From Candidatus Nomurabacteria bacterium (GTDB lineage: Bacteria > Patescibacteriota > Minisyncoccia > Phycocordibacterales > UBA9973), in assembly GCA_016199805.1 (NCBI GenBank), contig JACQGC010000018.1:5219-69218 (forward strand): a stretch of DNA of 64,000 nt, read 5' to 3'. The notes under the pieces are model-generated. The model did no database searches, was not told the origin of the DNA, and worked only from the letters and a program-made list of their open reading frames with translations. This document shows, piece by piece, positions 17,168-40,569 of this stretch (the first letter of the stretch is position 1; each line of letters starts with the position of its first letter). Both the position numbers and the translations under genes were made by a program.

Positions 17168-17211
17168 TCCACCCCGTCTCGGAGTACCGAGCCACCCCTC
17201 AAGAGGGGAAT
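17168..17211. repeat. GC-rich palindromic element (contains CCCCTCAAGAGGGG), inverted copy of the 17612-17650 element
   Basis: ccaccccgtctcggagtaccgagccacccctcaagaggggaat. Its reverse complement resembles attcccctcttgaggggtggc...ggggtgga downstream of the DUF559 gene. Confidence 0.5.
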
Positions 17212-17228
17212 CATGCAATCCAAAATCC

Positions 17229-17624: not shown

Positions 17625-17650
17625 GGGGTGGCGCTTGCGCCGGGGTGGAT
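17612..17650. repeat. GC-rich palindromic element attCCCCTCTTGAGGGGtGGCGCTTGCGCCggggtgga
   Basis: Two nested hairpins (CCCCTC-TT-GAGGGG and GGCGC-TT-GCGCC). A nearly identical copy is at 19906-19944. Confidence 0.6.
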
Positions 17651-17718
17651 ATATTTTACTTCTTGACAACCCGCTTCCAATAAAATATACTTAGTCTACC
17701 TAACTATTAGGTAGACAT

Positions 17719-19905: not shown

Positions 19906-19990
19906 ATTCCCCTCGTTGAGGGGTGGCGCTTGCGCCGGGGTGGAAATGCATCCACCTCCCCCTAAAGGGTACTCCTCAAGAGGAGAATAA
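19906..19990. repeat. cluster of GC-rich palindromic repeats between the adaptor and MFS genes
   Basis: attcccctcgttgaggggtggcgcttgcgccggggtgga (a copy of the 17612 element), then GGTGGAaatgcaTCCACC, then CTCCTCaaGAGGAG. Confidence 0.6.
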
Positions 19991-22181: not shown

Positions 22182-22252
22182 TACGGGATCTGCTAATGGT
22201 AGGCAAACGCTCTCTGAAAGCGTGAATCTTGGTTCGAATCCAAGTCCCGTAG
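22182..22252 (+). tRNA. tRNA-Gln (anticodon CUG)
   Basis: UACGGGA/UCCCGUA acceptor with U1:A72 and G73 as in bacterial tRNA-Gln, anticodon stem ACGCU/AGCGU with loop CUCUGAA, T-arm CUUGG-UUCGAAU-CCAAG. Confidence 0.8.
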
Positions 22253-22253
22253 C
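22236..22253 (+). repeat. 18-bp direct repeat gaatccaagtcccgtagc (left copy, the tRNA-Gln 3' end)
   Basis: Identical 18-mer at 22611-22628; together they bound the GIY-YIG insertion. Confidence 0.8.
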
Positions 22254-22288
22254 ACTTCGGCAAGCTCAGTGTAAACGAAAATATTTAC

Positions 22289-22570
22289 ATGGAAAAACAT
22301 TACGTATACATGCTTCTTTGCGACCAGAAAACTTTTTATATCGGTATTACTTTTGATATTCAGAAAAGGTTAGAAGAACACAAATCCAAGGAATCTTTTT
22401 TTACAAAAAAGTTTTCTGAAGTTAAACTTGTATATTGTGAGAAATATAAAAATAAAAACGAGGCTGCAAAAAGAGAACGACAATTAAAGGGTTGGAGTCG
22501 CAAAAAGAAGCAAATGTTGCTTAATGGAAAAATCGGAATAAACTGCATTGAGCTGGATGAAGTGCTGTAG
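22289..22570 (+). CDS. GIY-YIG nuclease-family protein (YhbQ/UPF0213-like)
   Basis: YVYMLLCDQKTFYIGITFDIQKRLEEH...R: the GIY-X10-YIG core with conserved Arg and Glu. Confidence 0.75.
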   Translation: MEKHYVYMLLCDQKTFYIGITFDIQKRLEEHKSKESFFTKKFSEVKLVYCEKYKNKNEAAKRERQLKGWSRKKKQMLLNGKIGINCIELDEVL

Positions 22571-22610
22571 TATAATTGAGATGAGACGTTTGCCTTGAGC
22601 TTGCCGAAAG

Positions 22611-22628
22611 GAATCCAAGTCCCGTAGC
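22611..22628 (+). repeat. 18-bp direct repeat gaatccaagtcccgtagc (right copy)
   Basis: Exact duplicate of 22236-22253. Confidence 0.8.
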
Positions 22629-22653
22629 CAGCAGCAAACTTAGCATATTTTTT

Positions 22654-23040
22654 GTGGAATTAGAAGCGTTGTGCTATTATGGGGGTATGGGAACAGGAAA
22701 TTTTGGTCACCCTCCCGAGGGTGCGTTTATAATAGACAAGAAAAAGGCGGAATTTAAGAAACTGCTGTCTTCCTTGACTTCTTTGCTGGAAAAACTTTCC
22801 TTTGGACAAAGGCAAAAATTCATTGCCGAAGTCTCCCGTTTGAGCGAACAGCTTTTACATACTGACCCGGAACTCTTATTGGAAGAGGTAAACATTTTAG
22901 CCCAGCTTTATGGGGGCTTGTCCACATCTCTGAAAGGGGAAGCAAACAGAGAGATTATCAGCGCCGCCACGTTTCAGCTCGGAGAGATTTCTGCCGCCGC
23001 GCAAGAACTGCAAAAAATAAAACCGGGTGCAAGAGCTTAA
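22654..23040 (+). CDS. hypothetical protein
   Basis: 128-aa ORF with a GTG start, ending just before a strong terminator; no recognisable domain. Confidence 0.45.
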   Translation: MELEALCYYGGMGTGNFGHPPEGAFIIDKKKAEFKKLLSSLTSLLEKLSFGQRQKFIAEVSRLSEQLLHTDPELLLEEVNILAQLYGGLSTSLKGEANREIISAATFQLGEISAAAQELQKIKPGARA

Positions 23041-23065
23041 TAATAAATAAAAATAAATTAGAATT

Positions 23066-23100
23066 GCCCCGCGTTCAGCTGAACGCGGGGCTGTTTCTTT
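23066..23100 (+). terminator. rho-independent terminator GCCCCGCGUUCAGCUGAACGCGGGGC plus U-tract
   Basis: Perfect 11-bp GC-rich stem followed by TGTTTCTTT. Confidence 0.6.
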
Positions 23101-23104
23101 CTCC

Positions 23105-23132
23105 TTGTCAAAAACCCCCAAAGATGTACTAT
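23105..23132 (+). promoter_or_regulatory. sigma70-like promoter (TTGTCA, 16 nt, TACTAT)
   Basis: -35 at 23105-23110 and -10 at 23127-23132. The predicted start (about 23139) coincides with the first base of the long stem of the downstream structured RNA. Confidence 0.4.
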
Positions 23133-23139
23133 TAAAGCA

Positions 23140-23309
23140 GTCCAGAGGAAGAACGCTTTGAGTTGACCTGGGGTGTGACAGCCCCGGCTGGCGACCCGGG
23201 CTGTCCTCCCGCACGGCCTCGCGCTTCTCCTCTGGACTGAGAATTGTTTTTGTCTTGTCCTATCGTTTTTTACCCGAGCTTCCTTCACTGGCGCTCGGGT
23301 TTGTTTTTT
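23140..23309 (+). ncRNA. candidate small structured RNA (about 170 nt, unclassified; long closing stem, asymmetric internal loop, apical hairpin)
   Basis: GUCCAGAGGAAGAACGC (23140-23156) pairs perfectly with GCGCUUCUCCUCUGGAC (23221-23237). Inner hairpin GACAGCCC/GGGCUGUC. About 62% GC in a 40% GC genome. Own promoter. Ends at terminator ACCCGAGC...GCUCGGGU plus U6 (23272-23309). No ORF. Confidence 0.4.
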
Positions 23310-23676
23310 ATATGGGCTATTGCCATTTCAATTTTTTTATATATACTAAAGTAAATGTAGTTTAGGTTCCTTTGTAAAGGAGTACCACGTGGTAAACATA
23401 CAAACCGTTTTCTGTCCTAACTGCCAACTTAGGACAAACGTTCAATTCCCCAATTGCGTACATTGCGGGAAGAGTCTTGTTGTTTCGACCAAACAAAGCC
23501 AACCCGTCGCCACCGCTGCCCGCCCGCGGCAATGGCCAACGGTAGCCGTTCACTAGGTTCTGCATTTCCGCCGAAAGGCATCGTAAAGGGCAGGCTCGCC
23601 AAGCTTGCCCTTTTTCATTGCTTGCAATGTGCTAAAAAGGAGTATAATTAAATTATTAATAACCTATTAAAAATAT

Positions 23677-23916
23677 ATGAATCAAAACAAAAATTGTGAG
23701 AGTTGTATGATGCCTTTGGCAAAGGACCCTATGGTTAGTGGGAGTGACAAGTATTGCAGTTATTGTTTCCAGGGTGGCCGGTTGGTTTACGAGGGGAATG
23801 ACGTGAATGAATTTAAAAAAGCCAGTTATGAGAAGATGGTAGCAAGCGGCATGAACAAACTGAAAGCCAAATTTTTCGTTTGGATGATTGGCTTCGCGCC
23901 CCGCTGGAAGAAGTAA
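23677..23916 (+). CDS. small zinc-ribbon protein
   Basis: CESC...16...CSYC arrangement in 79 aa. Confidence 0.5.
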   Translation: MNQNKNCESCMMPLAKDPMVSGSDKYCSYCFQGGRLVYEGNDVNEFKKASYEKMVASGMNKLKAKFFVWMIGFAPRWKK

Positions 23917-23938
23917 AATAAGTGGTATACTTAAACAT

Positions 23939-24484
23939 ATGAAAATAGAATCAGAATGGAAAAAAGTACCAAAACCTAGATTAGAAAAGACGTATCCAAA
24001 ATCTCCGGAAGATAGCAAAAAGCTATATGATATGAATGTTGCCTTGCTCAATTATTTGGAGCGTTATTCCGGTGATGCTGATATGCAGTTTATAAAAGAA
24101 GATTTTGAAAGATCCGAAGAATTTGGAGAAAAAATCTCTGTCTTAAAGGACGCATTGTCGGTTTTTGAAAAGGAAACAGTGGATCAAGTCAAGGCAAGTT
24201 GTCGGGCACAAATTGACGAACTCTCTGCCGCTTGGCTCAATAAAAAAAATGGAGAAGAGGTTGTGCGTCTGATAGATATCAGACTAGGTAATATTTCTGG
24301 GGATTTTGGAGTTGATATTAAAAAAGAGGCTGATAATTTCATAGCTATGTTGCGCAAAAAGCCCGAGCTTTGGGCTTTTTGTAATCTTTTGATTGTCGGG
24401 GCTCAAGTAAAAAAAGATTTAACATATTTTAGAAAAGTTACAGAAACAGCTATAGCAAGTAATTCTGGTAATACAGTTCAGTAA
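23939..24484 (+). CDS. hypothetical protein
   Basis: About 180-aa charged, helical ORF. The internal ATG at 23939 was chosen because the longer ORF overlaps the upstream gene. Confidence 0.45.
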
Positions 24485-24489
24485 AATTT

Positions 24490-24699
24490 ATGTATCTTGT
24501 TTACATTTTGGAATGCGCCGACAAGACTTTGTATGTGGGTTGCACAAACAACCTGGAGAAAAGATTAAATCAGCACAATAATCATAAATCCGGAGCCCAT
24601 TACACCAAAATCCGCCGCCCGGTGGTTTTGAAATATTTTGAGAAATATAGAACTCTAAAAAGGGGACGAGCTCGGGAACGGAAAGAAGTAAAAATTTAA
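24490..24699 (+). CDS. GIY-YIG nuclease-family protein (second copy, YhbQ-like)
   Basis: [30 protein letters not shown]...R. A palindromic hairpin follows at 24702-24724. Confidence 0.75.
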
Positions 24700-24803
24700 A
24701 TTTCGCGAGGACCGTCCTCGCGAAACTCGATTTATATTTGATTGATATCTTTTCCTTTTAGGTATAGAGTGAATTTGAAGCGGAGTTCCGATAAGGGGGA
24801 AAA

Positions 24804-25100
24804 ATGAATAGCCACAGGATCTTGTGCAAATGTGAGTGTGGTAATTACGTACAACCGTTCTCTTTGCGGGTTACAGACCAGAAGTCTTTGATGGTCATCG
24901 GAAAATGCATTGCTTGTGAGTCGCTGGTCAATGTGTTCTTCCCGCTAGATTACCTCGAGGAGTCTTGTCCGGCTCCGGCCCCGACTCTGTTAATTGAGGA
25001 AGGAAAGCCCATGCCGGGGAAACCCTTCCATTTCACGGTGGAAGATGTAAGGATGTTGCGCTCGGGGAAAATTGACCCAGAAGAGGAAGGAGAAGGATGA
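24804..25100 (+). CDS. Cys-rich hypothetical protein (putative zinc finger)
   Basis: CKCECG...CIACES; good Shine-Dalgarno (AAGGGGGAAAAATG); higher local GC. Confidence 0.5.
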   Translation: MNSHRILCKCECGNYVQPFSLRVTDQKSLMVIGKCIACESLVNVFFPLDYLEESCPAPAPTLLIEEGKPMPGKPFHFTVEDVRMLRSGKIDPEEEGEG

Positions 25101-25242
25101 GTCCTCGGGCTTTTCAAGAAGAAGGGTACTAGGGGAGGCGAGCTTCGGCTTACCTCCCCATTTAAATTATAAATTTGCAAAAAATACTACTGCTCTTGTA
25201 ATTTTCTATAAATATGTTACAGTGTTTTTGAAAGGAGCACAT

Positions 25243-25473
25243 ATGCAGAACCGAGTTATTATGGTTTCTTCGGTCAACTTGCCCGACGAAGCCGCACAGC
25301 AGATGAACGACGAAATCAAAAAGTTGGGAGAAGGCTGGAGCGTGGTTGATATCAGCACCAACGTCGAAGTATTTGGTGTTGTTGTGGACGGCATAAACAT
25401 ACCGCCCTTACACCACGCTGTATACGCCATAACCGTCGCGTTACAGAAGCCGGACTTTGAAGAGGTCGACTGA
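25243..25473 (+). CDS. hypothetical small protein
   Basis: 76-aa ORF with Shine-Dalgarno AAAGGAGCACATATG, followed by a terminator. Confidence 0.45.
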   Translation: MQNRVIMVSSVNLPDEAAQQMNDEIKKLGEGWSVVDISTNVEVFGVVVDGINIPPLHHAVYAITVALQKPDFEEVD

Positions 25474-25566
25474 CATATCGTGGCGGCGAGGACTAAAATC
25501 GGTTTCATCGGGTCGGGCGTCCGCAAGGACGTCCGGCCTTTCACTTTAAATTTAATACAAACTTTT

Positions 25567-25606
25567 ACTGGCGGTGCTCCTCGAGGGGGCGACCGCCAGT
25601 TTTTTT
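25567..25606 (+). terminator. rho-independent terminator ACUGGCGGU...ACCGCCAGU plus U7
   Basis: 9-bp stem, GC-rich loop, TTTTTTT. Confidence 0.6.
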
Positions 25607-25617
25607 GACCTTATGAC

Positions 25618-25764
25618 TTTAAAACGGAACCCATTCAGCCAGCTGGTCGTAGGCGACCCAGCCTCCCCAGAAAATTACCACAAGCATTAACAATGCTATC
25701 ACCGCCAACGTTTTCTTGCTCTTTGCCAAGACAACGTTTCCCAAACTCTCCAAGAAATAGGACA
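25618..25764 (-). CDS. small hydrophobic protein (48 aa), not in the ORF track
   Basis: Strong Shine-Dalgarno on the - strand (GGAGGCTCCATG); product MSYFLESLGNVVLAKSKKTLAVIALLMLVVIFWGGWVAYDQLAEWVPF has one TM. Confidence 0.35.
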
Positions 25765-25786
25765 TGGAGCCTCCAAATAATATACT

Positions 25787-26137
25787 ATGCTCAAAAAGAT
25801 TTTAGTCAAATTAAAAAATAGGGAGTATAATAATAGTATGAATTACATACAAAAATATAAGGAATATTTACAAGATAACCCGGAGGGTTATTGGTTCAAG
25901 AGGAAACTTTACGGCTGGGGATGGACGCCGGCCAAATGGGAAGGGTGGATGGTGATTTTTATATTTTTACTTTTGATTTTATTGGTTGCCTGGAGCCTGG
26001 GCTCAAATCCTATGCCGACAGATTGGGATATTGATTTATATTTTACAAAAATTATTTTGCTGGTGGCTCTGCTCATTCTAGTCTGCTACAAAAAAGGCGA
26101 GAAGCCAAAATGGCAGTGGGGCAAGAGAAAAGAGTAA
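25787..26137 (+). CDS. hypothetical membrane protein
   Basis: Trp-rich, one to two TM; alternative start at 25838. Confidence 0.5.
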   Translation: MLKKILVKLKNREYNNSMNYIQKYKEYLQDNPEGYWFKRKLYGWGWTPAKWEGWMVIFIFLLLILLVAWSLGSNPMPTDWDIDLYFTKIILLVALLILVCYKKGEKPKWQWGKRKE

Positions 26138-26150
26138 GAATAAGAAATAA

Positions 26151-26624
26151 ATGGAAAAAGATTACATTTTCAAAACCAATCCGCAAAAGTCGGCCAACAA
26201 GGTCACTATCAATAGTTTTATGATGGGTTCTTTGTTTTTCGTTTTGACTCTCATCATCACCCTCGGCTCAAGCGAATTTTCGCATGCCATAATCTTCCAG
26301 CTGTTCTTGGCAGTGCCCTTGCTTTATGTTTCCAGCTTGGCTTATTCCAAAATCGGCTACTGGAAAGAAACTTATGAGTGGGATGCTTTGGGGTGGTTTA
26401 CAAACACTCTTGGCAACCTGTTTGTCATCAACGCCATCGGCTTGCTCGCGCTAAAATTCAGCTTAGGTTTGTCTCAGATTTACTTTGCTTTGTTCTCTTT
26501 CCTGATGGTCATTTACACCCTTATTAATATCCGGCAAAACAAAAAAATATTTTACGAAAAAATGTTCAAGTTAATTTTTCTCTTGTTGGTCGTGTTCCTC
26601 GGGGGAATTTTGTTTATAATGTAA
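26151..26624 (+). CDS. hypothetical polytopic membrane protein
   Basis: 157 aa, four predicted TM segments. Confidence 0.5.
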   Translation: MEKDYIFKTNPQKSANKVTINSFMMGSLFFVLTLIITLGSSEFSHAIIFQLFLAVPLLYVSSLAYSKIGYWKETYEWDALGWFTNTLGNLFVINAIGLLALKFSLGLSQIYFALFSFLMVIYTLINIRQNKKIFYEKMFKLIFLLLVVFLGGILFIM

Positions 26625-26630
26625 ATATAA

Positions 26631-26684
26631 TTTCGGCCGAGCTTTAATGGACGATTGCGCGGCATGATTTCGCAAAATCAAATG
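26631..26684 (+). repeat. about 45-nt conserved leader element (copy A); second copy at 35801-35850
   Basis: gcTTTAATGGACGATTGCGCGGCATGATTTCGC(a/t)AAATCAAAT is shared. It forms hairpin GCCGNGC...GCGCGGC and contains an ATG opening a short uORF in copy B. Confidence 0.45.
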
Positions 26685-26984
26685 CAAAACATCAAAAAAC
26701 CATTTTTACACGCTTTCGCCGCAGCTTTATATATTGTGTTTATTGTTTTCGCTATAAGCACCATAGGTTCTAAGATACCGCAGGATAAAGCCATTCTTAC
26801 GCCCATGGTTGTCTTGAGTTTATTTGTCTTGTCCGCAGCCGTCATGGGATATTTGTTTGTCTCGCAACCACTTATGCTCTATATGGAGAATAAAAAACAA
26901 GAAGCTATGGCTTTCTTTGGCAAAACCGTGATTATCTTCGCCTGCTTCGTGGCTCTCTTTGTGATTTTACTTTTCATTTTTTAA
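26655..26984 (+). CDS. hypothetical membrane protein
   Basis: 3-TM ORF. The annotated ATG lies inside the repeated leader; the true start may be ATG 26676. Confidence 0.5.
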   Translation: MRGMISQNQMQNIKKPFLHAFAAALYIVFIVFAISTIGSKIPQDKAILTPMVVLSLFVLSAAVMGYLFVSQPLMLYMENKKQEAMAFFGKTVIIFACFVALFVILLFIF

Positions 26985-27019
26985 ACTTTACAAATACGCA
27001 ATAGTGTATAGAATGTTTT

Positions 27020-27313
27020 TTGGGGGTGCAAATGACAAAAGAAAGGGTACCAACGGTTAAGTTCTACCGGGCTACTGGGGCAGATGTTTTCGAGCCGGAA
27101 GACCAGCCCGGAAACTATTTTGTTCCGCGACGCTTGCAGCTTGGCGATGAAATGGCCGCTCTGCGTGTGAAGAAGGATGGGCGGGAGTGGGTTCCGTTTG
27201 AGTGCCTGCCAGACCACGGGGTCCGCCCACCCCTTCGGGCTGAATTGACTTTTTTCCTCCGGCACGAGCCCGGACGGATTGTCGGAAAGATTGCCAGACG
27301 GAGCTTGGCGTGA
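27020..27313 (+). CDS. hypothetical protein encoded in a GC-rich island
   Basis: 97-aa ORF in an about 58% GC segment; no recognisable domain. Confidence 0.4.
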   Translation: MGVQMTKERVPTVKFYRATGADVFEPEDQPGNYFVPRRLQLGDEMAALRVKKDGREWVPFECLPDHGVRPPLRAELTFFLRHEPGRIVGKIARRSLA

Positions 27314-27466
27314 CCCAAGCTTGGCGGGTGGCCGATTCCACCCACAAAAAACACAAGTCGTTAAGATTTCCTATGGAAAAACACTGGCGGCTTTTTATAT
27401 TTTTTCATAATGTATTCATAATTTAATTATATTGTTCTCGTGGACGTTCTACAAAAGGAGAGAAAA

Positions 27467-27970
27467 ATGTCCACACTGATGTTGGAGTTTATGGTTCGGG
27501 AATCGCGCGGGATTATAGATCTTTTCGGGTTTTTCCCGGGGAAAAGAGTAAAGATTGACAAGGCCTTCCATGAGCTGGCTTTGGGCGAGAATGGTGACCC
27601 CGACTATTCTTGTGGCGAATTGAAATGTCGTTTGTTCGAGGGCAGTACCGATGATATTCAAATGGCTGCGCTGTTCGGCGCCCCAAAGGTGGCGAACTCC
27701 AGCCGTTTGTGTTCAATTCTCAGGTACCTCGGCAACGAAGGGGAGTCGTTGTTGGATATACCGGCGGGGGCAGACAGGAAAGTTGTTATCGTGGGGTATC
27801 TCTACAACCGCGATTGGCAACCCAGCCGGGTGATTTTCGTGGAGCATGAGTTTCAGCAACGCGTAGAGCAATTTTGCCTGCGTGTCCGGACGCTCTCAAA
27901 GGGTGAGTGGCAGCTAAACAAAAACAAATGGAGGGCCGAGAATCCTCCGGCAGTACTGGTCGCCGAGTAG
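27467..27970 (+). CDS. hypothetical protein (GC-rich cassette)
   Basis: Strong Shine-Dalgarno AAAAGGAGAGAAAAATG; 167 aa. Flanked by imperfect direct repeats (cataatgtattcataat / cacaatgtattcataat) and followed by a strong terminator. Confidence 0.5.
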   Translation: MSTLMLEFMVRESRGIIDLFGFFPGKRVKIDKAFHELALGENGDPDYSCGELKCRLFEGSTDDIQMAALFGAPKVANSSRLCSILRYLGNEGESLLDIPAGADRKVVIVGYLYNRDWQPSRVIFVEHEFQQRVEQFCLRVRTLSKGEWQLNKNKWRAENPPAVLVAE

Positions 27971-27979
27971 AAATCTTTA

Positions 27980-28017
27980 CAGTCCCGCCGGTCACTACCG
28001 GCGGGACTGGTTTGTTC
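27980..28017 (+). terminator. rho-independent terminator CAGUCCCGCCGGU-CACU-ACCGGCGGGACUG plus UUUGUU
   Basis: Perfect 13-bp stem. Confidence 0.6.
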
Positions 28018-28111
28018 ACAATGTATTCATAATCTAACGATATTATTTCAAAGTCGGAAATTATAAATTTTAATTCGCAACCCAGTAGGTGATTCTACTG
28101 AATCAAATAAT

Positions 28112-28537
28112 ATGAATAAAAGCAATCCAGTAGTACATTTTGAAGTGCCGGGAGAAAATATGGACCGGATGAAAAAGTTTTATGAAACCGCTTTTGGCTG
28201 GAAGTTGAACCAACTCGGCAAAGACATGGGAGATTACGTGGTCGTAATGACGGCGGAGTCGAACGAAAAAGACCCCATGGGTCGCCCGAAAATGCCGGGC
28301 GCCATCAATGGTGGATTTTACAAAAAGACAGACGACCCCATGAGTCAGTATCCGTCCATCGTGGTGGCGGTGGATGACATAAACGAAGCGACGAAAAAAG
28401 TTAAGGATGCGGGCGGGAAAGTAATCGGCGGAATGAAAAAAGACGGCACGCCGGACGAGATTCCCGGGGTTGGCCTCTTCTCATCAATTATTGACACTGA
28501 AGGCAACAGAATAAGTATTCTTCAGCCAAAGAAATAA
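28112..28537 (+). CDS. VOC-family (glyoxalase/bleomycin-resistance fold) protein
   Basis: VVHFEVPGENMDRMKKFYETAFGWK..., about 140 aa single VOC module. Confidence 0.7.
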   Translation: MNKSNPVVHFEVPGENMDRMKKFYETAFGWKLNQLGKDMGDYVVVMTAESNEKDPMGRPKMPGAINGGFYKKTDDPMSQYPSIVVAVDDINEATKKVKDAGGKVIGGMKKDGTPDEIPGVGLFSSIIDTEGNRISILQPKK

Positions 28538-28538
28538 G

Positions 28539-29024
28539 ATGCAGCAAAAAATTACACCTTTTTTATGGTTTGATAAAAATTGCGAGGAAGCAATGAATTT
28601 CTATTGCTCGATTTTCAAGAATTCAAAAATTTTGAGTGTCAAACGCTATCCGGACGAAGACTTGGAAGGTCCGCCCAAGGGTATGCAGGGCAAAATCATA
28701 ACAGCAGTATTTGAGCTCGAAGGGCAAAAGTTTATGGCTCTAGACGGAGGTCCATATTTTAAGCCGAGTGGGGCTGTCTCTTTCTACATCGAATGCGATA
28801 CCCAAGAAGAAGTGGATTATTATTGGAATAAACTAAAAGAAGGCGGAGATGAAAAAGCCCAGCAGTGCGGATGGCTGCAGGACAGATTTGGTTTCTCCTG
28901 GCAAGTTATTCCCAAGATTCTTCCGGAACTACTAAATAGCCCCGATGCGGCGAAGGCGGACCGCACTTTAAAAGCCATGCTAAAAATGAAAAAAATTGAT
29001 ATTGAAGGTTTGAAAAATGCTTAA
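28539..29024 (+). CDS. PhnB-like VOC protein (3-demethylubiquinone-9 3-methyltransferase-domain family)
   Basis: ITPFLWFDKNCEEAMNFYCSIF...GQKFMALDGGP...CGWLQDRFGFSWQV. Confidence 0.7.
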   Translation: MQQKITPFLWFDKNCEEAMNFYCSIFKNSKILSVKRYPDEDLEGPPKGMQGKIITAVFELEGQKFMALDGGPYFKPSGAVSFYIECDTQEEVDYYWNKLKEGGDEKAQQCGWLQDRFGFSWQVIPKILPELLNSPDAAKADRTLKAMLKMKKIDIEGLKNA

Positions 29025-29130
29025 TCCCGGATATACCAAATCCCTGGACGAATTTTTCATAAAGCTTTCATAAAAATCTGGTATTTTCTTAGGGTCGAGT
29101 AGATTAAAAAAACAAGTATCAATAAATTTT

Positions 29131-29316
29131 ATGATGAAATTAGCTTGTAAAGATTTAAATCCCGCTTCCACTTGCGATTTTGTGGCCACGGGTAGTTCGC
29201 AGTCGAAAGTCGTAGGTAAAATGATGGCTCATGCCAAAGTAAATCACCCTGAAGACTTGATAGGAATGTCCGATGATGAAATTGAAAGTATGATGGACTC
29301 CAAAGTTCACGAATAA
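29131..29316 (+). CDS. DUF1059-like small metal-binding protein
   Basis: 61 aa reading MKLACKDLNPASTCDFVATG...MAHAKVNHPE. Confidence 0.55.
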   Translation: MMKLACKDLNPASTCDFVATGSSQSKVVGKMMAHAKVNHPEDLIGMSDDEIESMMDSKVHE

Positions 29317-29338
29317 AACTTCGTGTTATACTTGGTGT

Positions 29339-30331
29339 ATGACTAAATCAGCAAAAATTTTGCTATCATTAATAATTATTATTATTATTATCTTAACTTT
29401 TGTTACTGTTTTTTATTTTAGCAACAAAAAAGGAGATAACATTCCGGTGTCAGTGCAAACGGTTTCGGTTTTGGGCTGTTATATCGCCAAACTTTCGCAG
29501 GATGTTTATACGCTTCAAATTCAATCTGAAAACGACGGAGCAGAGATTGGCATACTGGCTTACAACAACTACGAGAAAGACAGTTCGTCGGGAGTTTTCA
29601 TCGGAAAACTTTCCGGAGATGTTCTCTTGGGCAACTACTCTTTTGATTCGGAAGGAATGCATTCAAACCGGCAGTTGATATTCAAAAAAGTCGGCGACAA
29701 TCTAGTGGAAGGGTTTGGCGACGTGAAAACAGCGGGAGACACCGAAACACTCGCAGATACCAGCAAGGTCATCTATGACCCTAAAGTCACTTTTGTGAAA
29801 AGCAACGACTGCTTGGAGAATTTCACTGCAGGCAATGGTTCTTTTTCTTTCAACTACAATGCTTTTTTTAGAGCAATGTCCGGCAACAGCACTCTTTCCA
29901 AAGACTGGGAATTGAATTCAAAACAAAACGGGCTTCTCTTGGCGAGTGTGTACGTACCCCAAAGTTATATGCCAAAGACAAACTTTTCCGAGGCTACACT
30001 AACGATAGGCAAGTCGGCAGACATAAGCGCCATCAAGAATTGCTTAGTGGACACAAACGGTCCTTCTGTTAAAAAAGAAGTGGCCATGGTAAGTGGATAC
30101 CCATTTACCAAGTATGTTTTTGGTGATGCCGGGGCTGGAAATTACTATGAAACAACCAGTTACCGAGGTATTGTCGGCGGAGATTGTTATGCTGTGGAAT
30201 ACACCGTTCATTCCACCAACATCGGCAATTACGACCCGAGTCAAGGCATAAAACAATTTGATAGGGACAAAATAACCGGCGATATGGAGTCTGTTATACA
30301 TAGCCTCCGGCTGATTGTCGCCAGTAACTAA
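29339..30331 (+). CDS. hypothetical membrane-anchored extracytoplasmic protein
   Basis: N-terminal TM (ILLSLIIIIIIILTFVTVFYF) and a 300-aa Ser/Asn/Gly-rich ectodomain. Confidence 0.5.
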   Translation: MTKSAKILLSLIIIIIIILTFVTVFYFSNKKGDNIPVSVQTVSVLGCYIAKLSQDVYTLQIQSENDGAEIGILAYNNYEKDSSSGVFIGKLSGDVLLGNYSFDSEGMHSNRQLIFKKVGDNLVEGFGDVKTAGDTETLADTSKVIYDPKVTFVKSNDCLENFTAGNGSFSFNYNAFFRAMSGNSTLSKDWELNSKQNGLLLASVYVPQSYMPKTNFSEATLTIGKSADISAIKNCLVDTNGPSVKKEVAMVSGYPFTKYVFGDAGAGNYYETTSYRGIVGGDCYAVEYTVHSTNIGNYDPSQGIKQFDRDKITGDMESVIHSLRLIVASN

Positions 30332-30336
30332 ATAAA

Positions 30337-31443
30337 ATGGCTCCCATAATAATTATATTTTTTGCAGGAATAGTTTCACTGGTACTCGCACTAGTGCATG
30401 TGATTGTTTACAAGGCATTTGTTTCTATTTTTTCCCTGACCGCAACGGGGAAGTTGTTTTTAGGAATTATTTTAGCCGCCTTGTGTCTGAGCTTTGTTTT
30501 GGCTTCAATTCTAACCTTTAATTTCAATAATTTATTTACCAGGACTTATTACACCATCTCGGCGACGTGGCTTGGTTTCGCTTTTTATCTGTTTTTGGCT
30601 TCGTGTATATATGTCTTGACTATTTTATTGTCACGAATTTTTGGTATTGATACTCCAAAGTTGTTTGGCATTCTGTGTCTAGTGTTGGCTCTCGCGGTGA
30701 GTATCTACGGTGTGGTTCACGCGCGCACTCTTTTGGTAAAAAATATAAATGTGACATTGCCAAACTTGCCGGCAGGGTGGCAGGGCAAGCGAGTCGTCTT
30801 TGTCAGTGACATACATCTGGGCGTGGTGCTGGGGCGGGATTTTGCGCAGAAAATTGTGGATAAAATAAACGAAATCAATCCGGACATAGTTTTTATAGGG
30901 GGCGATCTTTACGACGGAGTGAAAGTGGATGAAAACCAAATTGTTCAGCCGTTTGCAGGTTTGCATCCGGCGCTCGGTACATATTTTATCACTGGAAACC
31001 ATGAAGAATTTCGCGATAATAAGCCCTATCTGGAAGCCGTAAAAAATATAGGTATACGCGTTTTAAATAATGAGCTGGTGAATATAAATGGTTTGCAGCT
31101 TATCGGCGTGGATGACCGTGATTCTGTAAATCTGGCCAAGTTTCAAAATATTCTCGCCAATCTAAACATAAATAAAAATGAACCGTCCATTTTGTTAAAA
31201 CATGAACCATTTCAGCTGGACGAAGCTGCCAGGGTGGGCATAAGTATGCAAATTTCCGGGCATACTCACCGTGCGCAAGTTTTTCCACTGAACGGTTTTA
31301 CCTATTTAATTTACAAAGGTTATGATTATGGTCTTCATCTTTTTGGTAAAATGTCCGTGTATACTTCGAGCGGAGTGGGTACTTGGGGGCCACCGCTAAG
31401 GGTGGGTAGCGACAGTGAAATAGTTGTTTTTACATTTAGTTAA
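30337..31443 (+). CDS. membrane-bound metallophosphoesterase (calcineurin-like)
   Basis: 4 TM N-terminus; VVFVSDIHLG, GGDLYDG, GNHE and GHTH motifs. Confidence 0.75.
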   Translation: MAPIIIIFFAGIVSLVLALVHVIVYKAFVSIFSLTATGKLFLGIILAALCLSFVLASILTFNFNNLFTRTYYTISATWLGFAFYLFLASCIYVLTILLSRIFGIDTPKLFGILCLVLALAVSIYGVVHARTLLVKNINVTLPNLPAGWQGKRVVFVSDIHLGVVLGRDFAQKIVDKINEINPDIVFIGGDLYDGVKVDENQIVQPFAGLHPALGTYFITGNHEEFRDNKPYLEAVKNIGIRVLNNELVNINGLQLIGVDDRDSVNLAKFQNILANLNINKNEPSILLKHEPFQLDEAARVGISMQISGHTHRAQVFPLNGFTYLIYKGYDYGLHLFGKMSVYTSSGVGTWGPPLRVGSDSEIVVFTFS

Positions 31444-31481
31444 TAGTTTGAATTTTTGCAAATTTTTGGTAAAATAAAGAG

Positions 31482-32027
31482 ATGATGGATAAATTAAAAT
31501 TTGCTCTATTTTCAATAGTCGTTTTGGCTGTAGTCGGACTCATCGGGTATTGGGCTGTGGTCACCATCCAGTCCGGCAGTGAATTTGGAACAACCCAAAA
31601 AATTACCCAACTACAAAAAGAAAACGAAGATTTGACGAAACAATTGGCAGACCTGACTGACAAATTAAATACGCTTACACCAGAGCCGGTGGATACCACC
31701 CCTGTGGCCCAGAATCCAGATCCCCAAACACCGACTACCCCGACACAACCGACCACATATAAAAACCAATCTCTCGTAAACGAATTGCAGGTGCTTGTAT
31801 CCAATAAAGTGTTTATGAAATTAAAATCAAGCGGTACCCGGGTGGGCACCGTGCAGAAATTCTTAAATCTTTACAACAAAACTTCCAACAAAATTGATAA
31901 TGATTACGGAGCAAACATGGTCAAAGCTGTGTCCGCCTTTCAAAAAGACCAGGGTCTTTCCGCCGATGGACAAGCGGGTCCAAGCACCTACAGCAAAATG
32001 ATTGATTGGCTCAAGAAGCAGGGATAA
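31482..32027 (+). CDS. membrane-anchored protein with a putative peptidoglycan-binding domain
   Basis: TM, coiled coil, Pro/Thr linker, and C-terminal GTRVGTVQKFLN...VSAFQKDQGLSADGQAGPSTY (PG_binding_1-like). Confidence 0.6.
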   Translation: MMDKLKFALFSIVVLAVVGLIGYWAVVTIQSGSEFGTTQKITQLQKENEDLTKQLADLTDKLNTLTPEPVDTTPVAQNPDPQTPTTPTQPTTYKNQSLVNELQVLVSNKVFMKLKSSGTRVGTVQKFLNLYNKTSNKIDNDYGANMVKAVSAFQKDQGLSADGQAGPSTYSKMIDWLKKQG

Positions 32028-32033
32028 AAAACT

Positions 32034-33113
32034 ATGTATCAAGAAAAAAGACACAAACTAATAGCATTTTTCTGTGTTGCGATTGTTTTAATCGGTGGAT
32101 ATTTTACTTACACACATTCCGGGAAAAATAAAATGCCGGAAGTGAAACAAATAGATACCACCCCCACCACACAAACAGTTGCCGTGAACGTACCCATAAA
32201 AATACCGGCGAAACCTACTCCGCCGCCGTTACCTCTCGGCACGGACCAATTTGTGGTTTCGCTCGCGGCCACTTCGGATGATGTTTCCGGAAAGTTGCTG
32301 GATGGAGAATACATAAAAGATGCTTCGGCTTTTACGACACTTATAGGCGCAAAAGTAATTGCACCCGGCGCGTATAAAATTTCTAAAGACATGACCCCGG
32401 CACAACTTTTGCAAGTTTTGCGCGGCAAGCCGTATATGAAATGGATAGTCATTCCGCCCGGATTGCGCAAGGAAGAGATTGCCGCCCTGCTCGCGCCCGC
32501 CCTCGGTTGGACAAAAAAACAAACCACGGAATGGATTACCAAAGACACGATCACCAAACCGGAATACATTGAGGGAGTATATGCTCCGGATACATATTTG
32601 ATTCCGGTGGGGGAAAAACCGGTAGATGTCACCACCCGGCTCATTTCCAAATTCAACGAAGGGTTCGCGCCATACTTACCACAATTCACGGCGAAGAATA
32701 TTAAGTGGACTACAGCTCTCACTCTCGCTTCCATAGTGCAAAGAGAAGCCGCCAATGTGTCTGACATGCCGCTCATTTCCGGCATACTTTGGAACAGGCT
32801 CAATCAAAACATGATGCTGGGTGTAGATGCCACATTGCAATACATACGCGGCAACAAAGGCGCAGGCTGGTGGGCTCCGATTACTGTGGCTGACAAACAA
32901 ACCGACTCTCCATACAATACATACAAACATACCAGTTTGCCTCCGCACCCGATAGCCAACCCGAGCCTGCAAGCCATAGATGCAGTCTTAAATCCTACCA
33001 AGACAGATTGCCTGTATTATATTCACGATAAAAACCATATCACTCACTGCGCCGCCACCTACGAAGAACACCAGGTGAATATACAGAAATATTTAATCAG
33101 CCCCGCAAATTAA
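32034..33113 (+). CDS. mltG: endolytic murein transglycosylase MltG (YceG-like)
   Basis: N-terminal TM; C-terminal YceG signature (GLYSPDTYLIP..., ASIVQREA, LQ.D.T..Y). Confidence 0.75.
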   Translation: MYQEKRHKLIAFFCVAIVLIGGYFTYTHSGKNKMPEVKQIDTTPTTQTVAVNVPIKIPAKPTPPPLPLGTDQFVVSLAATSDDVSGKLLDGEYIKDASAFTTLIGAKVIAPGAYKISKDMTPAQLLQVLRGKPYMKWIVIPPGLRKEEIAALLAPALGWTKKQTTEWITKDTITKPEYIEGVYAPDTYLIPVGEKPVDVTTRLISKFNEGFAPYLPQFTAKNIKWTTALTLASIVQREAANVSDMPLISGILWNRLNQNMMLGVDATLQYIRGNKGAGWWAPITVADKQTDSPYNTYKHTSLPPHPIANPSLQAIDAVLNPTKTDCLYYIHDKNHITHCAATYEEHQVNIQKYLISPAN

Positions 33114-33157
33114 ATTACATAAAAAGTTATCCACACCCGCCATTGTGGGGAATTGAC

Positions 33158-33178
33158 ATATACCCCCAGGGGGTATAT
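33158..33178 (+). promoter_or_regulatory. CsoR-type operator ATATACCCCCAGGGGGTATAT overlapping a promoter (TTGACA at 33153-33158)
   Basis: Perfect GC-cored inverted repeat of the TACCC-N-GGGTA class bound by CsoR repressors, placed between a consensus -35 and the csoR start. Confidence 0.55.
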
Positions 33179-33187
33179 GCTGTTTAC

Positions 33188-33454
33188 ATGAAACAAGACA
33201 TAAAAAATAAAGCCTTACGCAGATTGAAGATTGTGGAAGGTCAGGTGCGGGGCTTGCAAGAGATGGTGAACAAAGAAAAATACTGTATTGATATTATTAC
33301 CCAAACCAGCGCGGTGAGAAAAGCGCTTTCCAGCGTGGAAGATTTGATCTTGGAAAATCACTTATCTACGCATGTTATTCACCAGATTAAACATGGACAG
33401 GAAGACACACCCATTAAAGAAATATTAAAAATTTATAAGCTAAAAAGCAAATGA
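33188..33454 (+). CDS. csoR: CsoR/RcnR-family metal-sensing repressor
   Basis: LRRLKIVEGQVRGLQEMV...C.D...Q..A...AL with conserved Cys and His. The stop overlaps the copA start (ATGA). Confidence 0.75.
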   Translation: MKQDIKNKALRRLKIVEGQVRGLQEMVNKEKYCIDIITQTSAVRKALSSVEDLILENHLSTHVIHQIKHGQEDTPIKEILKIYKLKSK

Positions 33455-35796
33455 ATACACCTAAAACATTTAGAATAAAAGGCATGCATTGCGCATCTTG
33501 CGCGAGCATCATAGAGAGAACCGTAAAAAAGATTGCGGGAGTGGAAGATATATCTGTAAACAACGGAACAGAAAATGTCAGGATTTCTTTTGACGAAAGT
33601 AAAACAAGTCCAGAGTATTTTAATAAAAAACTGGAACCGCTCGGATATTCTTTGGTGGTACCAGATATGAATATGCAAGGCACGGCTATGCAAATGGGCA
33701 TGAGTGAAAACGAACATGCGGCGCACCTGGGACTGAACCAGACAAAAAAAGAAAAACTGGCCGAACTAAAAGACATGCGCAATAAGCTTTTCTCACTCAT
33801 CCCGATTGTGCTGGTAAGTATTTTTGTCATGGGCTGGGATATTTCTGCGCAATTTAAAATTTTTCCGGAAATGTCCGCGACTTTCGAAAACTTTTTTCAC
33901 TATCTTTTGCCGATACTCGCCACCTATACGCTCTTTGTGGTGGGCAAGCCATATCTGCTCGGCCTGTATCGTTTTTTCCGCTACGGCAAAGCCAATATGG
34001 ACACACTGATTGGGCTCGGCACAGGAGTGGCCTTTTTATATAGTTTCATCATCAGCGCTTTCGGGGAAAGTTTGAAAAATTTTGTAAACGTTAATCAAAG
34101 TTACTACGATGTTTCGATTGTGGTCATTGCTTTCATCACCCTCGGAAAATATCTGGAGGCCCGGTCAAAACTAAAAACCGGCGATGCCATAGAAAAACTT
34201 TTAAATCTACAGGCCAAGACAGCTTTGGTAATCCGCGAAGGCAAAGACCCCGAAGGAAAGCAAGCTTCCTACGGGGCAGGGATTGAAATCCCCATCGAGC
34301 AGGTTGTTCATGGTGATCTTATTATTGTAAAGCCCGGGGCAAAAATTCCGGTGGATGGCGTCATCACTGAGGGTTCTTCTTTTGTGGATGAAGCCATGGT
34401 CACCGGAGAATCTATGCCGGTTAAGAAAAGTATCGGTGACAGTGTGGTGTCGGGAACAATAAACACGACAGGGTCTTTCGTTTTCAAAGCCACGAAAATC
34501 GGCTCGGAAACTCTCCTTGCGCATATCGTGAAAATGGTGGAAGAAGCGCAGGGCAGCAAGGCGCCCATTCAGGCCTTGGCCGATAAAATTTCAGCTATTT
34601 TCGTTCCAATTGTTTTGGGCATTGCCGTGGTCACTTTGGCTTTGTGGCTCTTGATTGGCACGCAGTATCTGGGTTTCTCGCAAGCATTTTCATTTGGGCT
34701 GGTTTCTTTTGTAGGGATTTTGGTGATAGCTTGCCCGTGCGCGCTCGGTCTGGCTACTCCAACTGCGATAATTGTCGGTGTAGGTAAAGGAGCTAAAGAG
34801 GGAATACTCATCAAAGACGCAGCTACGCTCGAAAAATTGCACAAAGTGGATACGGTGATTGTGGACAAGACCGGGACCATAACAATAGGCAAACCGACTC
34901 TGGTTGATATACAAAATTTTACGGACAAAAAAGATGAGGAAATAATTTCCATTTTAGCTTCACTCGAAAATAAATCGGAGCACCCGATAGCTCACGCGAT
35001 TATGAATTACACGAAAGAAAAAAATATTCCAATATTTGAAGTTTCAAATTTTGAAAGTATAAAAGGAAAAGGATTAAAAGGGTCAGTCGCGGGTGAAGAA
35101 TATTTTGTTGGGAATGTGAAACTAGTGCAGGATCTCAATGTGTCCTTTGATATTTCAAAAATCGAAGAATTTACAAAGCAGGGGAAAACACCGGTAATTT
35201 TAACCACAGCAGAAAAAGTGATGGGTTTTGTGATGGTGGCAGATGAAATAAAAACCGAATCAAAAAAAGCAGTGGAAGATTTACACAGACTCGGCATCAA
35301 AGTCATAATGGTGACAGGGGATGACGAGAGAACAGCCAAGCATATTGCCTCGTTGGTTGGCATCGACAGTGTCTTGGCCCACGTATTACCCGAAGATAAA
35401 TTAAACAAAATAAAAGAGTTACAAAAAGAAGGGCACGTAGTAGCCATGGCCGGAGATGGAGTCAACGACGCGCCAGCACTCGCGCAGGCGGACGTGGGCA
35501 TAGCCATGGCTACAGGCACAGACGTGGCTATCGAGAGCGCCGGCATCACCCTCCTCGGCGGAGACATTTCCAAGCTGGTCAAAGCCATAAAGCTTTCCAA
35601 GATGACCATGCTCGGCATCAAACAAAATCTCTTCTGGGCTTTTTTCTACAATGTTGTCGGTATTCCGCTCGCGGCAGGAGTATTCTATCCGCTTGGGGGT
35701 TGGCTTTTAAACCCGGTATTTGCCGGCATGGCTATGGCTTTTTCCAGTGTTTCCGTAGTCGGGAATTCATTGCGCATTAAAAGCAAAAAATTGTAA
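33451..35796 (+). CDS. copA: copper-translocating P-type ATPase
   Basis: N-terminal HMA (GMHCASCASIIE), CPC motif (CPCALGLATP), DKTGT, and GDGVNDAP. Confidence 0.9.
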   Translation: MNTPKTFRIKGMHCASCASIIERTVKKIAGVEDISVNNGTENVRISFDESKTSPEYFNKKLEPLGYSLVVPDMNMQGTAMQMGMSENEHAAHLGLNQTKKEKLAELKDMRNKLFSLIPIVLVSIFVMGWDISAQFKIFPEMSATFENFFHYLLPILATYTLFVVGKPYLLGLYRFFRYGKANMDTLIGLGTGVAFLYSFIISAFGESLKNFVNVNQSYYDVSIVVIAFITLGKYLEARSKLKTGDAIEKLLNLQAKTALVIREGKDPEGKQASYGAGIEIPIEQVVHGDLIIVKPGAKIPVDGVITEGSSFVDEAMVTGESMPVKKSIGDSVVSGTINTTGSFVFKATKIGSETLLAHIVKMVEEAQGSKAPIQALADKISAIFVPIVLGIAVVTLALWLLIGTQYLGFSQAFSFGLVSFVGILVIACPCALGLATPTAIIVGVGKGAKEGILIKDAATLEKLHKVDTVIVDKTGTITIGKPTLVDIQNFTDKKDEEIISILASLENKSEHPIAHAIMNYTKEKNIPIFEVSNFESIKGKGLKGSVAGEEYFVGNVKLVQDLNVSFDISKIEEFTKQGKTPVILTTAEKVMGFVMVADEIKTESKKAVEDLHRLGIKVIMVTGDDERTAKHIASLVGIDSVLAHVLPEDKLNKIKELQKEGHVVAMAGDGVNDAPALAQADVGIAMATGTDVAIESAGITLLGGDISKLVKAIKLSKMTMLGIKQNLFWAFFYNVVGIPLAAGVFYPLGGWLLNPVFAGMAMAFSSVSVVGNSLRIKSKKL

Positions 35797-35800
35797 AATA

Positions 35801-35850
35801 AAGCCGCGCTTTAATGGACGATTGCGCGGCATGATTTCGCTAAATCAAAT
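35801..35850 (+). repeat. about 45-nt conserved leader element (copy B)
   Basis: See 26631-26684. Hairpin GCCGCGC-N14-GCGCGGC followed by ATGATTTCGCTAAATCAAAT (a uORF MISLNQIL*). Confidence 0.45.
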
Positions 35851-40537: not shown

Positions 40538-40569
40538 TGCCCCATTTACGCCATGGCGTAAATGGGGCA
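40538..40569. repeat. 32-bp perfect palindrome TGCCCCATTTACGCCATGGCGTAAATGGGGCA (downstream copy)
   Basis: Its reverse complement equals itself. Second copy 440 bp upstream; together they bracket the Cas2-like ORF. Confidence 0.8.

Follow-up and report, generated by a model that had tools for sequence, protein, structure and literature searches.

The DNA analysed here, which we call the window, is a 64,000-nucleotide (nt) stretch of a Candidatus Nomurabacteria bacterium (assembly GCA_016199805.1, contig JACQGC010000018.1, positions 5,219 to 69,218 of the forward strand), and our subject is its GC-rich interval at 27000-28035. Two open reading frames (ORFs) on the plus strand make up the GC-rich part of this interval: gene 1 (27032-27313, 93 amino acids (aa), or 97 aa from a TTG at 27020) and gene 2 (27467-27970, 167 aa). 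The 153-nt spacer between them (27314-27466) has a GC content of 37.3%. Gene 2 is followed by a strong hairpin and lies between two copies of a 37-nt direct repeat, beyond which begins a glyoxalase/bleomycin-resistance superfamily gene. A preliminary description, made from the sequence alone, read the interval as a horizontally acquired two-gene cassette bounded by direct repeats. We lean instead, at a little better than an even chance, toward two separate small transcription units: a copy of a previously unnamed gene family (gene 2) and an orphan ORF (gene 1).

The interval is atypical in GC content and codon choice and ordinary in oligonucleotide signature. It has 50.6% GC versus 42.7% across the window, and only 0.3% of 1036-bp windows are as GC-rich; the preliminary description was right about the excess over background and not about its size, having put the segment at 55-58% and the background at roughly 40%. 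The excess resides in gene 1 (57.5% over 27020-27313) and gene 2 (52.4%). Among 72 non-overlapping ORFs, gene 1 has the highest GC content (+3.2 standard deviations) and gene 2 lies at about +2 standard deviations. The third-position G fraction (G3) is 0.37 in both genes alike, and two-fold purine-ending codons end in G in 68-70% of cases, versus 25-45% in most window genes. Under a host codon model derived from 20 long genes of the window, gene 2 scores -0.09 bits per codon and gene 1 scores -0.27, whereas neighbouring genes score +0.16 to +0.19. The dinucleotide relative-abundance distance of the segment is 62, versus a mean of 86, with an equal or larger deviation in 77% of windows; for tetranucleotides, 19% of windows deviate as much or more. 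The compositional comparison suggested earlier as a check thus gives a divided answer, with GC and codon usage deviating and the di- and tetranucleotide signatures not being outliers.

Gene 2 starts at ATG 27467, four nt downstream of AGGAGAG (27456-27462, plus strand), which reads as the strong Shine-Dalgarno (SD) sequence already pointed out in the preliminary description. Exhaustive phmmer comparison of the protein with 1.84 billion representative sequences retrieved 43 homologues, mostly 137-183 aa in length and 27-43% identical, of which 11 have E <= 1e-10 (best E, 1.2e-19). The closest relatives of the window protein share at most 43% identity. The family was revealed by exhaustive phmmer alone; a word-indexed search of 5.8 billion protein clusters returned only the protein itself, encoded on a Logan contig (9176 bp, SRR12113408). 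An alignment of gene 2 with its homologues (A1) contains the conserved motifs FFPGK.V..D, YLG.EG..LL.IP.GE.E.N.ILGY, EHE.E.G and EIHLHAR..N.W.DD.P, and the C-terminal part is the best conserved part of the protein. The window protein retains FFPGK..D, the YLG.EG..LL.IP.G block and EHE. It lacks E.E.N and HLH, with GADRKV replacing GE.E.N and CLR replacing HLH, and it carries a nine-residue insertion relative to the alignment. AlphaFold, given alignment A1, predicts the window protein with a mean predicted local distance difference test score (pLDDT) of 90.7 and a predicted template-modelling score of 0.87, as compared to a pLDDT of 39.9 from the single sequence. Because it has 43 homologues, conserved motifs and a model that becomes confident only with the alignment, we take gene 2 to be a true gene of an unnamed protein family, and its product to be a diverged member of an uncharacterised group of ~160-aa proteins. 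Foldseek comparison of the model with PDB and BFVD gave nothing at E <= 0.001, and comparison of the family with Pfam, NCBIfam, PHROGs, PADLOC and PDB-sequence profiles gave only scattered single-member matches at E > 0.005. The conserved Glu/His cluster suggests a metal site. When the whole window was translated in six frames and searched with a family profile, a match was obtained at 27422-27967 (4.9e-45) and no second copy elsewhere.

Where do relatives of gene 2 occur? A 12-member family alignment retrieved matching loci from metagenome contigs and gave no match in viral contigs. The homologues whose context could be read all lie among bacterial housekeeping genes, mostly on AT-rich, Patescibacteria-like contigs; one carries the NCBI name Candidatus Nomurabacteria, and relatives of the window locus are labelled as Minisyncoccia, Paceibacterota and Nomurabacteria. 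The family's hosts are thus Patescibacteria-like. We compared the DNA of eleven further distinct family loci with the window. Nine of these eleven show the same contrast as the window, with gene GC of 48-58%, third-position GC of 50-73% and flanks of 35-41%. Gene and flank values are 56% and 39% at L002, 56.5% and 40% at L006, 56% and 35% at L012, 54% and 37% at L018, 53% and 38.5% at L020, 49% and 40% at L023, 48% and 39% at L024, 55% and 39% at L027, and 58% and 40% at L029. Counting the window, the contrast is present at 10 of 12 loci (48-58% in the gene versus 35-43% in the flanks). It is absent from two, L021 (33 versus 35) and L022 (48 versus 51.5).

The family gene occupies a small number of recurrent positions. 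At L018, L023, L024 and L027 it follows obg, in the order YqeY-(VTT)-MYG1-Obg-gene, with gatB downstream in the first three; at L002, L012, L020 and L029 it follows miaA, in the order ParB-HTH/EPSP-MiaA-gene; and at L006 it lies between PAP2 and EamA. Proteins at the obg position are 78-82% (Obg) and 74-81% (GatB) identical, as against 45-50% for the family protein. This difference implies that the gene has been resident across substantial divergence and evolves faster than its neighbours, while still GC-rich. High GC is a trait of the gene 2 family and by itself provides no date for acquisition. Since homologues are GC-rich even when syntenic across lineages, the composition of the window copy is no proof of recent foreign origin. 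Coding sequences (CDSs) of the family also tend to fold somewhat better than expected from dinucleotide shuffles, with a median z of -1.8; nine control genes have a median of 0.0 (Mann-Whitney p 0.0025). This folding excess is uneven among members, and the window gene 2 CDS has a z of -1.5. Two family genes stand in tandem at L023 (5001-5501 and 5799-6275; proteins 43% identical), each equipped with a promoter and a 3′ element (88% identity between the two elements); an automatic gene call laid a minus-strand ORF (5925-6218) over the second gene. Directly after the family unit of L024 lies a 284-aa GC-rich ORF (5713-6567, local GC 49-58%) without a credible family match, another compositionally deviant gene at the same position.

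At canonical loci, both flanks of the family gene show conservation. From nine loci we defined a canonical unit, using alignments of the upstream region (A4) and the 3′ element (A3). Upstream, the consensus is TTGACTTTT...TGnTATAAATAT, which contains a near-perfect -35 box and an extended -10; between it and a Shine-Dalgarno sequence comes a short leader hairpin with compensating stem changes. The stop codon is immediately followed by an element of ~125 nt, with three predicted hairpins on the coding strand. Its order is hairpin 1 (CCCGCCGGCG..TGTCGGCGGG), ATATCGGA, CTGCGGTYCA, hairpin 3 (ACCTCAGYTYGATTTTATCGGRCTGRGGT), AAAATTRTGCC and a T-run. Copies lie at L018 4506-4625, L023 5514-5637 and 6285-6409, L024 5488-5625, L020 2600-2725, L002 7501-7623, L006 3342-3465, L012 621-755 and L029 4456-4584. 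The element's DNA is 75-94% identical between loci whose family proteins share 33-54%, and at the obg position it is 86-88% identical, versus 73-75% for obg DNA.

The predicted structure fits the coding strand better than its complement. RNAalifold gives -37.95 kcal/mol for the plus (coding) strand and -23.15 for the minus strand, and several of the invariant pairs are G-U, which the opposite strand would turn into C-A mismatches. Of the alignment cells in the three helices, 97.3% are paired, as against 23-44% in slid controls; both sides change in four pairs, and the covariation score is matched by 3 of 500 shuffles. Such evidence, drawn from seven sequences, is supportive of the structure, not conclusive. 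A covariance model built from canonical elements (R1) found copies outside its training, the second L023 copy (117 bits) and that of L029 (93 bits). Canonical loci score 93-135 bits, and a partial copy at L027 scores 26.7 bits. No match was obtained at E <= 1 when the elements of seven family loci were searched against Rfam 15, and scans of viral sequence gave zero matches to the element. We regard the 125-nt, three-hairpin element as a candidate new RNA motif.

Compared with this canonical unit, the window copy appears reduced. What the two still have in common amounts to three features: the ORF, its GC excess and the hairpin 1 core. The hairpin after gene 2 (27980-28009, plus strand; CAGTCCCGCCGGT-CACT-ACCGGCGGGACTG, then GTTTGTT) has a perfect 13-bp stem and a 4-nt loop, with a predicted free energy of -28.4 kcal/mol and a z of -7.0 versus shuffles. 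It is likely the intrinsic terminator of gene 2, in keeping with the strong terminator reported in the preliminary description. Its core, CCCGCCGG/CCGGCGGG, corresponds to the hairpin 1 core of the family (CCCGCCGG..CGGCGGG), the columns of which are invariant in all eight sequences of A3, the window included. Model R1 gives only 18.8 bits (E 0.015) on window positions 27980-28070, and A3 and R1 both indicate that hairpins 2 and 3, with ATATCGGA and CTGCGGTYCA, are absent from the window copy. The window row of A4 likewise lacks TTGACT and the TGnTATAAA box, i.e., the consensus promoter TTGACTTTT..TGnTATAAAT, as well as the CCC..GGG leader hairpin. The genomic position differs too: tblastn found no Obg, GatB, MYG1, MiaA or EPSP-synthase gene in the window, and the PAP2 homologue of the window (271-750) has no family gene beside it. 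Upstream of that PAP2 gene, at the position where L006 has its family gene, a long GC-rich imperfect palindrome can be seen by eye at about 139-238 (arms ~221-238 and 139-159). We read the window gene 2 as a diverged, partly stripped paralogue that was probably relocated.

The 37-nt direct repeat (27400-27436 and 28011-28047) has 31 of 37 positions identical and includes the 14-mer AATGTATTCATAAT, which occurs in the window at 27409-27422 and 28020-28033 only. Both copies can be read as sigma-70-type promoters on the basis of their match to the consensus hexamers. Module A (27394-27436, plus strand) offers TTTATA-17-CATAAT or TTCATA-18-TATATT and ends 30 nt before the start codon of gene 2, where the family promoter stands in A4. 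Module B (28011-28047, plus strand) offers TTCACA-18-GATATT and ends 64 nt before ATG 28112 of the glyoxalase/Ble-like gene. A third, weaker relative (TTTGTTTATAATGTAAATATAATTT; 26609-26633, plus strand), 76-80% identical to the other two, lies upstream of the ORF starting at 26655 or 26682. A leftward extension of the 37-nt repeat into the hairpin arm was considered and set aside, the alignment being unconvincing. Duplicated upstream modules are found elsewhere in the window as well. For example, a 52-nt module (5206-5257 and 47255-47306, 88% identical) runs into the start codons of two unrelated genes, and a 48-nt module (26636-26683 and 35803-35850) has copies that are identical at 46 of 48 positions, sharp-edged and 9167 bp apart. 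At single-copy family loci there are no flanking repeats. At L023, repeats containing ATGCTATAAATAT enclose the first of the tandem genes, since both this gene and the next have a promoter. Because of the sigma-70 hexamers, the placement upstream of two genes, the other duplicated modules of the window and the L023 parallel, we read the 37-nt repeat as a reused, duplicated module of promoter type. The imperfect direct repeats around gene 2 exist much as the preliminary description had them. The role raised for them there, that of marking junctions, loses ground in view of their promoter-like character, their absence from other family loci and the other duplicated upstream modules; that junction model is weakened, not eliminated.

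Some further features of these repeats may be mentioned. Each copy of the 48-nt module (GCCGCGCTTTAATGGACGATTGCGCGGCATGATTTCGC) stands right after a stop codon and right before the next start codon, and contains a short upstream ATG and the inverted repeat GCCGCGC-14 nt-GCGCGGC. The module is also present in the Nomurabacteria genome L002 (4441-4481, 95% over 41 nt), before an unrelated HTH/EPSP-synthase gene; viral scans gave zero matches to it. Two independent Logan contigs of the same sample start or end within the 48-nt copies. Other duplicated intergenic modules lie at 17621-17652 and 19916-19947 (32 nt, 97%) and at 4801-4824 and 38801-38824 (an identical 24-nt hairpin). Short regulatory-looking blocks are evidently reused in this genome.

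Gene 1 is a different matter. Its putative translation would start at ATG 27032, four to five nt downstream of an SD-like GGGGGTG, and it is oriented like all of its neighbours. A promoter-like site upstream (26987-27014, plus strand; TTTACA, 16 nt, TAGAAT) matches the consensus at 10 of 12 positions. The GC-rich block is bounded, exactly at its edges, by 18-nt arms of an inverted repeat (TGTTTTTTGGGGGTGCAA at 27014-27031, which includes GGGGGTG, and TTCCACCCACAAAAAACA at 27336-27353) that are complementary at 16 of 18 positions (89%). By a rough estimate, the chance of such an inverted repeat in the region is ~0.05. No further copy of it was found in the window or the retrieved loci, and the flanking bases contain no target-site duplication. 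A weak hairpin follows the gene (27326-27343, plus strand; GGGTGG-CCGATT-CCACCC; -12.8 kcal/mol, z -1.4); with an A-run after it and no T-run, it lacks the appearance of a canonical intrinsic terminator. Only gene 1 itself came back from the word-indexed search of 5.8 billion clusters and from further searches, the exhaustive phmmer run having covered gene 2 only, and Pfam, NCBIfam, PHROG and PADLOC gave no match. Homology searching of both proteins, as the preliminary description recommended, thus yielded relatives for one and none for the other. We considered gene 1 as a decayed family copy and rejected this, since the family profile matches no window ORF but gene 2. As noted in the preliminary description, ORFs overlap on both strands here: there are four, of 79-97 aa, across 26981-27356. 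One of them, an antisense in-phase frame (26981-27265), is equally open, and both codon models score it like the gene 1 frame. The third-position composition of gene 1 is nearly that of gene 2. Folding gives z +0.8 for the CDS on the plus strand and, for the whole block, -0.3 on the plus strand and -3.0 on the minus strand; Rfam has no match in 26500-28500 at E <= 5. We consider gene 1 to be an orphan ORF, separate from gene 2 and preceded by a promoter-like site, that may or may not be translated. Without a homologue, and nowhere else linked to gene 2, it gives no support to a two-gene cassette as a unit.

The surroundings have an accessory look. Between tRNA-Gln (22182-22253) and position 26137 lie two GIY-YIG fragments (22310-22570 and 24490-24699), a zinc-ribbon ORF and small unannotated ORFs, some of which show the same bias toward G-ending codons. 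The GC-rich segment has variable, ORFan-rich surroundings, with a tRNA gene at a distance of 4.8 kb. GC also rises, to as much as 52%, in a second patch at about 24850-25750, which has a 13-bp hairpin (25510-25539) and a G-ending codon bias like that of genes 1 and 2. Precomputed Pfam tables for genes called across 22226-35830, and Pfam searches of the neighbours, contain no recombinase, integrase or transposase. Downstream, the glyoxalase/bleomycin-resistance superfamily gene (28112-28537, plus strand; PF00903 at 4.1e-10, PF22677) has host-like codon usage (+0.19 bits per codon). Upstream, a 157-aa membrane gene (26151-26624) has 81-83% aa identity to counterparts in three Patescibacteria genomes (L013, L014 and L015), and is oddly well conserved amid unconserved surroundings. 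Of the genes tested from 19.9-36.9 kb, those three genomes have nothing else in common with the window within 10 kb except tRNA-Gln, matched in two of them, and, in L013, a VTT-domain gene. Exact-protein look-ups of the neighbours returned the same sample only. Given that the nearest genomes share almost none of the window genes tested, that the segment is atypical and that its ORFs are mostly unannotated, an accessory, relocated origin is plausible.

How, then, should the interval be explained? The preliminary description proposed that a recent foreign segment, comprising gene 2 or genes 1 and 2, was inserted at a 37-nt site that became duplicated as junctions with the 14-mer at their core. 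We consider this unlikely, though less so than the other alternatives. A GC content in the top 0.3% of windows, the highest of 72 ORFs in gene 1, and negative host codon scores beside neighbours at +0.16 to +0.19 are in keeping with such an event, and the 14-mer core with its imperfect arms brackets exactly one gene and its terminator. The setting fits as well: the stretch from tRNA-Gln to the segment is variable and contains GIY-YIG fragments and orphan ORFs, and the nearest genomes share almost no genes around their copy of the membrane gene. The atypical composition, which the earlier claim of a horizontally acquired cassette drew on, therefore stands. What does not stand is the use of GC and the repeat as diagnostics, the former being family-wide and the latter without counterpart as a junction elsewhere. 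Homologues are GC-rich even in cross-lineage synteny, so GC cannot date the event; those with a readable context lie among housekeeping genes, viral contigs gave no match, and flanking repeats are absent from other family loci. Moreover, the di- and tetranucleotide signatures are ordinary, the domain tables list no integrase or transposase in 22.2-35.8 kb, and gene 1 lies outside the repeats altogether. It is also possible, but doubtful to a slightly greater degree, that the gene 1 block (27014-27353) is a 340-bp non-coding insert or decayed remnant, for example one resembling a miniature inverted-repeat transposable element (MITE) with 15-nt terminal inverted repeats (TGTTTTTTGKGGGTG), or the remains of a unit that was once a neighbour. 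This would account for an inverted repeat, matching at 14/15 to 16/18 positions, that falls exactly at the edges of the GC-rich block, for the four overlapping ORFs on both strands, for codon models without strand preference, for the minus-strand folding z of -3.0 and for the lack of homologues. The block is nevertheless single-copy in the window and at all loci, it has no target-site duplication, and such a repeat has a non-negligible probability of arising by chance. The plus-strand ORF has a promoter-like site and an SD-like GGGGGTG where they would be needed, the third-position composition equals that of gene 2, the CDS folds with z +0.8, and Rfam gives no match.

Two other explanations concern the scale and the nature of the unit. 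The mobile or duplicated entity might be the whole 9.2-kb stretch (26636-35850) between the 48-nt direct repeats, with the GC-rich kilobase a mere passenger. We hold this to be very improbable. The repeats are indeed sharp-edged (46/48) at a distance of 9167 bp, and contigs of an independent assembly, made from the same sample, break precisely within these two copies; assemblies, however, are expected to break at any repeat longer than the k-mer. The stretch itself has a host-like GC content of 43.1% and carries housekeeping genes (YceG, PG_binding_1, CsoR and CopA) and no recombinase, and the 48-mer precedes an unrelated gene in L002, as a conserved leader or operator motif would. Less credible still is that the block encodes a structured non-coding RNA and no protein. 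In AT-rich genomes, an island of high GC often turns out to be an RNA gene; moreover, the full gene 2 transcript folds with a z of -3.9 and family CDSs tend to fold better than controls (median z -1.8 versus 0.0). For gene 2, the protein homologues and the confident fold largely refute the idea. The CDS alone reaches only -1.5 in gene 2 and +0.8 in gene 1 (plus strand), and Rfam has no match even at E <= 5.

We are thus left favoring, with the reserve stated at the outset, two separate transcription units. Several observations weigh against this reading. The unusual preference for G-ending codons is common to genes 1 and 2, and hints at a common history that two separate units leave unexplained. 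The 31/37 identity of the repeat extends beyond a shared -10 box, which means that a duplication or recombination event occurred. Homology between module A and the family promoter is not demonstrable, and A4 is unreliable in AT-rich sequence. No relative among the genomes compared is syntenic with this part of the window. Finally, protein relationships ignore genomic position: L002 (miaA) is nearest to L006 (PAP2), and L012 (miaA) is nearest to L018 (obg). This last pattern would fit either exchange of alleles via the conserved flanks (or mobility), better than it would simple vertical descent, or old paralogy with differential loss; both are hypotheses. Recent horizontal acquisition of the window copy is neither shown nor excluded.

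If two separate units is the correct reading, gene 2 would be a diverged copy of a lineage-typical unit composed of a promoter, a short SD leader, a GC-rich ORF of ~160 aa and a GC hairpin, and the GC excess would have been inherited with the gene 2 family. Some constraint would maintain that GC content, possibly mRNA structure or allele exchange via the conserved flanks. The window copy would have moved to a different site, keeping the ORF and hairpin 1, and would have lost the remaining 3′ element along with several conserved acidic and His residues. One copy of the 37-nt module would drive gene 2, and the other the downstream glyoxalase-family gene. Recombination between the two copies could delete gene 2. 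A bolder reading, which we offer tentatively and rank a shade below a non-coding origin of the gene 1 block, is that the family unit represents an undescribed exchangeable gene module of Patescibacteria. Here a fast-evolving ORF, kept GC-rich, would lie between a promoter and a 125-nt RNA/DNA element, both near-invariant. With these flanks serving either as arms of homology or as a recognition site, alleles could be replaced or could move, both among lineages and among genomic positions. A regulatory or mobilising role would fall to the RNA element itself; the window copy would be a relocated, decaying module, and the duplicated 37-mer the scar of its move.

The locus resembles several known systems, in each case incompletely. 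Like horizontally transferred islets and ORFan genes, it combines local GC and codon deviation with small unknown genes, in a variable region near a tRNA gene and in a gene order that the nearest genomes do not share. Unlike them, it has no mobility gene that we could find and an ordinary oligonucleotide signature, and the same deviation occurs in homologues that are syntenic across lineages, such that it bears no time-stamp. Integron cassettes also consist of a small ORF followed by an imperfect-palindrome hairpin, and can be compared to the tandem units of L023 and to the occurrence of the family at several genomic positions. However, every family unit comes with a promoter, unlike the promoterless ORF of an integron cassette; canonical copies are flanked by housekeeping genes; and the domain tables contain no integrase. 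The R′ consensus of attC is GTTRRRY, which the GTTTGTT following the window hairpin does not fit; this comparison is with the consensus alone, no attC model having been run. The canonical 125-nt element calls to mind 3′ untranslated region (3′-UTR) elements and 3′-UTR-derived small RNAs, in that it follows the stop codon on the coding strand and is conserved above the ORF. It differs in being absent from Rfam 15 and in having no U-run directly after the last hairpin, and the window retains the first hairpin only. Diversity-generating retroelements are common in bacteria of the candidate phyla radiation. Their variable proteins, of C-type-lectin fold, are akin to the family in evolving fast and in having a GC hairpin with a 4-nt loop after the ORF, but no reverse transcriptase or template repeat was found, and the C-terminal part of the family protein is the most conserved. 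As to MITEs, the gene 1 block has terminal repeats (16/18) but neither a target-site duplication nor a second copy.

Three further features of the window deserve mention. Near-identical palindromic hairpins (40098-40146 and 40538-40586) surround a 139-aa ORF (40097-40516), and a 24-nt inverted repeat (17191-17214 and 17609-17632, 96%) surrounds a DUF559 (Vsr-like endonuclease) gene (17229-17624). Both may represent small mobile or insulated units. A cobalamin riboswitch (RF00174) lies at 57223-57362 on the minus strand, with a score of 36.6 bits, above the gathering threshold.

Finally, this locus calls for some caution in reading composition. A GC island between repeats looked like a textbook insertion, yet the GC excess proved to be a heritage of the gene family, and for the repeat the simplest reading is a reused upstream module. 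Members of the family lie 10-20 GC points above their hosts, across lineages in which Obg is only ~80% identical. Such genes offer a case in which to ask what, in a reduced genome, keeps composition off mutational equilibrium. A candidate protein family and a candidate RNA motif also join the uncharacterised core of Patescibacteria.

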